From positions 60,264,001-60,328,000 of the forward strand of contig OX597825.1 of NCBI GenBank assembly GCA_951406725.2: DNA of 64,000 nucleotides, in the 5' to 3' direction. A program made the translations under genes and the position numbers. The stretch comes from Octopus vulgaris. Taxonomy: Eukaryota. Numbering within the stretch: position 1 is the stretch's first letter; every line of letters starts with the position of its first letter. The notes under the pieces are model-generated. The model ran no database searches. It saw only the letters and a list, made by a program, of their open reading frames with translations, and was not told the DNA's origin. This document shows positions 27,897 through 28,429 of this stretch, piece by piece.

Positions 27897-28429
27897 AACG
27901 TAAAGTGTACTAGCCATCTGAATGTGGCCAGCCACTGGGGGTGGGTGTTACTGACGCGTTTAGCCCCAGGAGATCGTCGTCTCCAGCTGGCTTTAGACAC
28001 AATTTCAGTGACCTTCTGATATTTGCAAAGGGAGGTCATCCCCTCTCGAAAACCTAAGTGATACATACGGACTATGGTTTCGAGGTTTTTGCCTCTCGTC
28101 AACGTATGGTAAACACCGGTTTTCGATAAAGGAGACCTGTTTGCAAAATCTATTTAATGTTTTTCCCAGCAACCACAGTCACTGATTTAGAAAAACTGTC
28201 TGAAAGCATTAATAAATCTCCGAACGAGATGTAGACAGTAACCGCTCGACAACGTAAAGTGTACTAGCCATCTGAATGTGGCCAGCCACTGGGGGTGGGT
28301 GTTACTGACGCTTTTAGCCCCAGGAGATCGTCGTCTCCAGCTGGCTTTAGACACAATTTCAGTGCCCTTTTGATATTTGCAAAGGGAGGTCATCCCCTCT
28401 CGAAAACCTAAGTGATACATACGGACTAT
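27897..28429 (-). mobile_element. Retrozyme-like element: 1.5 tandem copies of a 354-bp unit
   Basis: 179-bp direct repeats at 27897-28075 and 28251-28429 with 3 mismatches. HHR at the junction; (ATT)n on both sides. Confidence 0.75.
28064..28108 (-). ncRNA. Minimal type I hammerhead ribozyme (C3U variant)
   Basis: Minus strand: catacg-TTGACGA-gagg-caaaaa-cctc-GAAAC-cata-GTC-cgtatg. Stem I 6 bp, stem II 4 bp, stem III 2 bp; cleavage between 28070 and 28069. Confidence 0.8.

Follow-up and report, generated by a model that had tools for sequence, protein, structure and literature searches.

A family of 354-nt hammerhead retrozymes in Octopus vulgaris with two fixed 3' ends and signs of Penelope-type mobilisation

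Positions 27,897 to 28,429 of the window, the 64,000-nt stretch of Octopus vulgaris DNA analysed here, are one copy of a dispersed, non-coding hammerhead family. In the reading we favour, to which we give a probability of roughly two in three, this family of 354-nt units with two fixed 3' ends would stem from monomer RNAs that are self-cleaved, likely circularised, and copied by a trans-supplied Penelope-like reverse transcriptase (RT) and endonuclease into nicked AT-rich DNA. Our verdict, drawn from genomic sequence, is that the family adds a new member to the animal non-LTR retrozymes and that its genomic copies give unusually clear evidence of Penelope-type mobilisation. An earlier, sequence-only reading of the window had already placed the element in the non-LTR retrozyme class, and rightly so, all sequence-level retrozyme features tested being present. 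That reading overlooked the fixed 3' ends and the head-to-head copies, which point to a Penelope-like enzyme. The kind of element is itself already known, since mussel retrozymes of the same size have been published and dependence on Penelope-like elements (PLEs) was proposed twice.

The window copy and its insertion site

The inserted copy (27897..28429, minus strand) measures 533 nt and is composed of 6 nt, a 354-nt unit and a further 173 nt. Units are numbered from u1 = 28423, the first minus-strand base past the upstream GUC, to u354 = 28070, so that the monomer from cut site to cut site occupies 28070..28423 (44.6% GC). The copy is 5'-truncated, opening with ATAGTC (28424..28429), a remnant of the preceding unit that holds an incomplete ribozyme and is an ordinary truncation point, and it closes with a partial second unit (u1-u173, 27897..28069) stopping at end A, one of two fixed 3' ends of its family, referred to below as family X. 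Between the fixed ends A and B lies a 47-nt "tail" segment (u174-u220, 28204..28250), which is internal here and terminal on one arm of head-to-head copies elsewhere. The repeat described earlier, 179-nt copies at 27897-28075 and 28251-28429 spaced by 354 with 3 mismatches, was recovered, as were the minus-strand start ATAGTC|CGTATG at 28429 and the (ATT)n flanks, an AAT-type microsatellite lying on either side.

These flanks are the two halves of the internal (AAT)n of another repeat, split by the insertion. On the 5' side, 28430..28549 consists of (AAT)n followed by (ACT)n, beyond which lies the tRNA-like head of the host repeat (28552..28686, minus strand), with a box-B-like motif recognised by eye and an inverted 5' piece at about 28612-28686. 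On the 3' side, an (AAT)n remnant (27883..27896) leads into the host body (27737..27882, minus strand), in which a minimal-hammerhead motif is present in degenerate form. Of 11 other loci, 10 have head and body directly joined across (AAT)n. The retrozyme inserted into this microsatellite.

Only one complete ribozyme is found at the window locus, the upstream site retaining the GUC and the 3' strand of helix I alone; the two consecutive complete ribozymes by which a 2026 preprint recognises an "active" locus are absent. With a single complete ribozyme, the window copy on its own is probably an ordinary insertion and a dead end. An ATG-started frame of 77 aa begins 4 nt past the cut site in the window monomer; its candidacy as a gene was rejected, as a similar length is kept in only 1 of 18 other family X monomers and no Pfam match was obtained, so the earlier statement that the unit holds no meaningful ORF stands. 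No PLE protein match lies within the window and the element has no RT or GIY-YIG frame, hence it is not an autonomous PLE. A search for Pol III boxes A and B within the unit found none, an octamer-like 9-mer at u41 being observed in its course. Assembled contigs from four runs, three of them presumed RNA, contain family-like pieces over 27700-28700 in which strand, ends, level and circularity are unreadable.

The ribozyme, its sister families and the monomer fold

The type I, HH9-like hammerhead motif (28048..28120, minus strand) was matched by the Rfam HH9 model at 28120-28048 with 35.6 bits (E 4.1e-7, 901 bases searched; gathering score 52), a match absent from the 143 obtained at E<=1 when the whole window was scanned, an output consisting mostly of microsatellite noise. 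The motif is as the sequence-only reading had described it, with the 5' strand of helix I at 28108-28103, the core starting with U3 at 28102, helix II at 28095-28082, GAAA at 28081-28078, and a 2-bp helix III followed by the predicted cut at 28070/28069. The label "minimal" has to be withdrawn, however, because helix I (6 bp) is extended past a bulge and helices II and III have 4 and 2 bp, which marks a canonical ribozyme rather than the minimal PLE type. At u348 the window copy has C; T stands there in 114 of 119 aligned copies, whose helix III is palindromic. Compared with Rfam Hammerhead_HH9 (RF02275), core layout, loop II and the bulged, extended helix I are alike, while the score lies below the 52-bit gathering score, position 3 is U and the motif sits in a mobile repeat.

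In the genome searched (227 contigs, 2.8 Gb), the monomer as query gave 3039 first-look candidates; the 40 of these that were scored yielded 125 matches on many contigs, and an exact motif at u153-171 found 481 matches (0 for the reversed-pattern control). The tandem and multi-copy check proposed with the earlier reading thus reveals a dispersed family with at least about 400 ribozyme copies and not a single-copy local duplication. Arms at other loci carry 2-5 ribozymes against one in the window copy, the longest reaching 817 nt in a sample of 63 loci and 1794 nt in family Y. Families Y and Z are sister families of X identified in this analysis. Family Z is 74% identical to the window monomer and has U3 (for example L179:1250-1607, 358 nt). 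Family Y is 68% identical, with 352-353 nt and a C3 core (for example L184:1540-1891); its ribozyme, with 444 exact matches, has compensating changes in helix I, and the palindrome of its helix III is a different one. Among 40 family Y candidates scored, 28 full-length matches reach a rounded 100%, self included, and by this measure family Y is very young and nearly mutation-free, making it the best candidate for current activity (examples are L215 at C12:56.70 Mb and L217 at C1:180.1 Mb). A fourth, more diverged relative with C3 is seen at L198:2085-2428. At L080 (C1:94.32 Mb) a family X insertion occurs four times at a spacing of about 1.38 kb, inside a tandemly amplified LINE-like fragment. 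The ribozyme pattern scan of metagenome contigs gave 0 matches.

Position 3 of the core deserves separate treatment. The sequence-only reading described a C3U change; the base was read correctly, but it is no lesion of this copy, since U3 is the family state, exact core patterns in families X and Z together giving 396 with U3 (reversed-pattern control 0) and 4 with C3. Of the four C3 loci, one carries a second ribozyme with U3, which suggests that the C3 cases are later point changes. Covariation to U3-A8 occurs naturally according to the available text of PMC3088659 and PMC4209133, and a halophile-derived U3 core with G8 is mentioned in that of PMC7151607; no kinetics of a U3-G8 core were found in the literature searched. 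The C3-G8 pair is lost when U3 faces G8, and cleavage in families X and Z may accordingly be slow. That U3 is retained in both, at 74% identity and with intact helices, suggests a ribozyme slowed rather than dead. In the available text of bioRxiv 2026.07.22.740005, 8 of 9 Xenopus retrozyme dimers were without in vitro cleavage, and these non-cleaving dimers, together with the broken C3-G8 pair, count against the favoured reading. Core and helices are kept across families of only 60-76% identity.

The monomer is predicted to fold into a branched rod closed by helix I of the hammerhead, at -116.9 kcal/mol (z -5.16; 0 of 100 shuffles equally good). Across 13 monomers, compensatory changes were counted in 17 of 66 predicted pairs, against 10.7 for shuffles (0 of 500 as high) and 1-7 for slid controls, these controls ignoring relatedness and the structure being derived from the same 13 sequences.

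Insertion ends, template and candidate helper

Ends were tallied at 63 distinct sites taken from the first 100 of the 481 listed u153-171 matches (contigs C1-C3). Loci were chosen by motif and position, not by score; segmental repeats of two sites were left out, L165 and L166, which look like one event, were both counted, and six arms were dropped, two because they were detached and four because their identity was below 80%. The outer 3' end lies at A (u169-176) in 55 cases, at B (u212-223) in 37 and elsewhere in 4, the two fixed ends lying 47 nt apart, a distance that corresponds to the Penelope "tail". Head-to-head copies make up 33 of the 63 loci and pair A with B in 29 of them, A with A in 0, B with B in 0, the remaining 4 including one other end; the 30 non-inverted loci end at A (25) or B (5). 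The selection motif requires at least one arm to reach u171 and does not force A to pair with B. The same pairing recurs in 15 of 17 inverted family Y loci, and family Z matches stop at 176-179 and 221-224, positions homologous to A and B. Among loci outside microsatellites, target duplications of at least 9 nt occur in 14 of 31, inverted loci contributing 12 (of 14) and non-inverted loci 2 (of 17), with lengths of 9-19 nt (raw counts with no chance control), and the window locus is unreadable in this respect. Contact with microsatellites is seen at 32 of 63 loci, a raw share without a background rate. Taken as a whole, mobilisation of PLE type is close to certain.

The positions of the 5' ends are scattered; among 68 arms at risk, 4 stop within u346-u9, where 4.5 would be expected. 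The headline of the earlier reading, that the element starts beside its own cleavage site, therefore reflects chance in the window copy, whose start lies 6 nt before a GUC, and linear monomers copied to their cleaved end are not the main template. The cut site is crossed by 60 of 101 arms, twice by 6 of these.

Evidence on the template comes from haplotypes and junctions. At 36 subfamily-diagnostic columns in 93 loci, disagreement amounts to 63/925 between tandem units and 77/1272 between arms, compared with 41.8% between loci. By nearest-other-locus divergence, within-locus identity gained no support, the divergence within a locus being no greater than that to the nearest other locus in only 24 of 57 tandem pairs; as the nearest-locus value is a minimum over many loci, the diagnostic columns were used instead. 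For family Y, 33 loci picked for several ribozymes or top scores, with the near-duplicate L229 dropped, contain 14 haplotypes, and in 62 of 68 shared-variant cases every covered unit agrees. Eleven rare variants are present in every covered unit of 6 loci, the others being confined to one unit (74) or to a subset (4), and L217 has two private variants, both in all 5 covered units. Because any mutation first affects a single unit, its presence in every unit of both arms implies a monomer step. Scored for deletions and for GTC itself, 114 of 119 junctions are intact, and 43 rows checked contain no insertion. More-than-unit copying of one monomer, as the sequence-only reading proposed, is favoured by the haplotype uniformity within loci; exact junctions combined with uniform haplotypes make a circle the simplest reading, and a circular template appears probable. 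Multimeric templates, template switches or conversion also occur, as the mixed haplotypes in L185, L224 and L226 (family Y) and L013, L019 and L076 (family X) indicate, along with L216 (C2:54864547-54866338), where a position-specific variant pattern at unit position 332 is present on both arms. The L216 pattern is as expected from a trimeric circle or a linear multimer template.

Coding PLEs that could supply the enzyme are present in the genome. At least 148 GIY-YIG matches were listed, from 150 scored of 6136 first-look candidates. A young PLE family (L061-L064) has intact 781-aa frames with RT and GIY-YIG domains (96.5-99.5% identical), a separate upstream frame (479 aa in L064, without a curated Pfam match) and a repetitive 3' region. 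Among 16 distinct 3' regions listed for it, a first site is the end of 10 and a point about 38 nt further on the end of 4, while 2 continue; nearly all lead into (TA)n. This family shares the footprint of the retrozyme, not its sequence, and is a candidate helper. By eye, the minimal hammerhead motif of L061-L064 reads U3-A8.

Several possible links between unit and coding PLE were followed. Searched with the retrozyme profile, 44 PLE-search loci, a small part of the 6136 candidates, contained only separate insertions and no coding PLE terminus homologous to the unit. PLE protein matches lie near 8 of 180 partly overlapping family loci; the three examined in detail (L141, L162, L232) proved to be separate insertions. 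At L069 a pLTR candidate was a 73% match to u29-u220 representing a sister-family insertion, the PLE ending about 650 nt earlier. Similarly, ribozyme pairs 1.4-3.6 kb apart were rejected as coding elements: they were either isolated fragments or larger duplications, and none enclosed a PLE frame. At L232 and L237 an older, frameshifted PLE has a family Y copy inserted about 240 nt past its frame. The concern raised with the earlier reading, that the unit might be the terminal repeat of a coding PLE, is thus answered in the negative for the 44 loci and L069, L141, L162 and L232. Furthermore, the coding PLEs examined in this genome carry minimal hammerhead motifs, while the retrozyme ribozyme is canonical in type.

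Mobilisation models and relation to known elements

In the mechanism we propose, loci with two or more ribozymes would be transcribed, and their hammerheads, probably paired as dimers by way of the palindromic helix III, would release monomers of 354 nt; by analogy with known retrozymes, a host ligase would close these monomers. A Penelope-like enzyme would then nick the target, often (TA)n or (AAT)n, a bias seen directly at the insertion sites. Copying is expected to be primed inside the RNA at site A (u173) or B (u220), where the observed 3' ends lie, and to circle the template for a variable length with no pause at the cut site, consistent with the scattered 5' ends and intact junctions. 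Where both strands prime, one at A and the other at B, the observed head-to-head copies and a target duplication of 9-14 bp would result. The window copy may be understood as the product of a single arm primed at A, 1.5 units long, with another repeat's (AAT)n as its landing site.

Penelope-type mobilisation might instead act on a linear template, either an uncleaved multimer transcribed from master loci in tandem or a monomer that the enzyme re-enters through exact jumps from end to end, with a ribozyme that is weak or dispensable. The U3 core of families X and Z would suit such a template, as would the position-specific variants shared by both arms of L216; the fact that 5' ends do not accumulate at the cut site is as compatible with uncleaved RNA as with circles. 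In addition, ribozyme mutants of an anole PLE inserted normally in vitro, unprocessed RNA being the main substrate, in the available text of PMC11167929. We nevertheless regard a linear template as unlikely, given that variants are repeatedly uniform across the units of a locus (14 haplotypes in 33 loci; L217), whereas finite multimers need a monomer step, that junctions are exact, and that ribozyme core and helices persist between families of 60-76% identity.

The remaining explanations concern the vehicle. If the unit were the pseudo-LTR of an unsampled coding PLE, the short copies would be its truncated insertions, a proposal to which the PLE-like nature of all structural signatures, the homology of Xenopus retrozymes to pLTRs (available text of bioRxiv 2026.07.22.740005) and the scoring of only 40 of 3039 candidates in the genome search lend some weight. 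It is very improbable, as arms run 5' into further units and not into an ORF, PLE matches near family loci are few and those followed up, with L069, are separate insertions, and the ribozyme is of canonical type. Target duplications and 5' inversions also arise by LINE twin priming, which could speak for a SINE-like passenger of an ordinary LINE (RTE, CR1 or R4-type), and a few loci (L080, L081) within segmental tandem duplications could speak for a satellite spread by DNA-level duplication. In twin priming, however, the inverted part is an internal piece of one transcript, whereas here the arms end at fixed, different 3' sites; with respect to the cut site the units are also permuted, and a family-specific tail is lacking, so that a LINE passenger or satellite is more improbable still.

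Returning to the circular monomer, a more specific form of this model can be put forward tentatively and at rather less than even odds. A Penelope enzyme dimer might hold one RNA circle at two start sites 47 nt apart, priming one DNA strand at each and rolling round in both arms, in a clan that is still active and in which the U3-G8 wobble of two families throttles the ribozyme and spares the circles. If true, this would provide genomic proof of animal retrozyme movement and an explanation of the one-sided PLE tail. The favoured mechanism is directly testable, one genome combining a young retrozyme family, natural C3/U3 ribozyme pairs and intact PLE frames.

With the animal non-LTR retrozymes, as characterised in the available text of PMC7229834 (mussel repeats of 350-390 nt), the octopus family shares a type I hammerhead per unit (here with U3 for C3), multi-copy, non-coding tandem units within 150-450 bp, GC below 50%, a strongly self-paired monomer, long target duplications (more than 4 bp) and co-existing PLEs. 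It differs in that U3-G8 is fixed in two families, in its mostly dispersed arms of 0.1-2.3 units and in being known from genomic sequence; moreover, the two fixed internal 3' ends and the A+B rule are not described in that text. With EN+ PLEs (available text of PMC8557442; anole Poseidon PAc, PMC11167929) it shares 5' truncation, partial tandems, inverted 5' copies, a one-end tail, two internal start sites, AT-rich and microsatellite targets, and a hammerhead. PMC8557442 describes the partial tandems, inverted copies, one-end tail and microsatellite bias, and PMC11167929, within its available text, equates the tail with the gap between two RT start sites and reports no strand difference in start site in vitro. 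Unlike EN+ PLEs, the family has no RT/GIY-YIG frame, a tail of 47 nt instead of 30-40, a ribozyme of canonical type, and no homology to a coding pLTR in the loci examined. PLE dependence has likewise been proposed for Xenopus retrozymes, where, in the available text of bioRxiv 10.64898/2026.07.22.740005, it rests on co-occurrence and pLTR homology in vertebrates, whereas the link here is the insertion footprint, homology not having been found.

Both the moving enzyme and the circle as template of animal retrozymes have so far been proposals in the available text of PMC7229834 and bioRxiv 2026.07.22.740005. The insertion footprints described here name the enzyme class, the haplotype uniformity of sister family Y argues for a monomer template, and the strict rule of one site per arm is a constraint on PLE priming. 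A literature search found no paper on a cephalopod retrozyme among its results, and "ribozyme" and "retrozyme" have 0 occurrences in the main text of an octopus repeat annotation; an existing catalogue, such as the supplement of PMC7229834, may already list the family.

The host repeat of the window copy (window and L130-L140; 3145 first-look candidates) frequently shows 5' inverted pieces and looks like a SINE mobilised by a PLE, a case for which the literature search found no example. It apparently has two 3' ends about 30 nt apart. Elsewhere in the window, 7035-7114 forms a perfect 80-nt palindrome about one central base, and tandem arrays of 184 bp x4 (42948-43682) and 133 bp x2 (55339-55608) are present.
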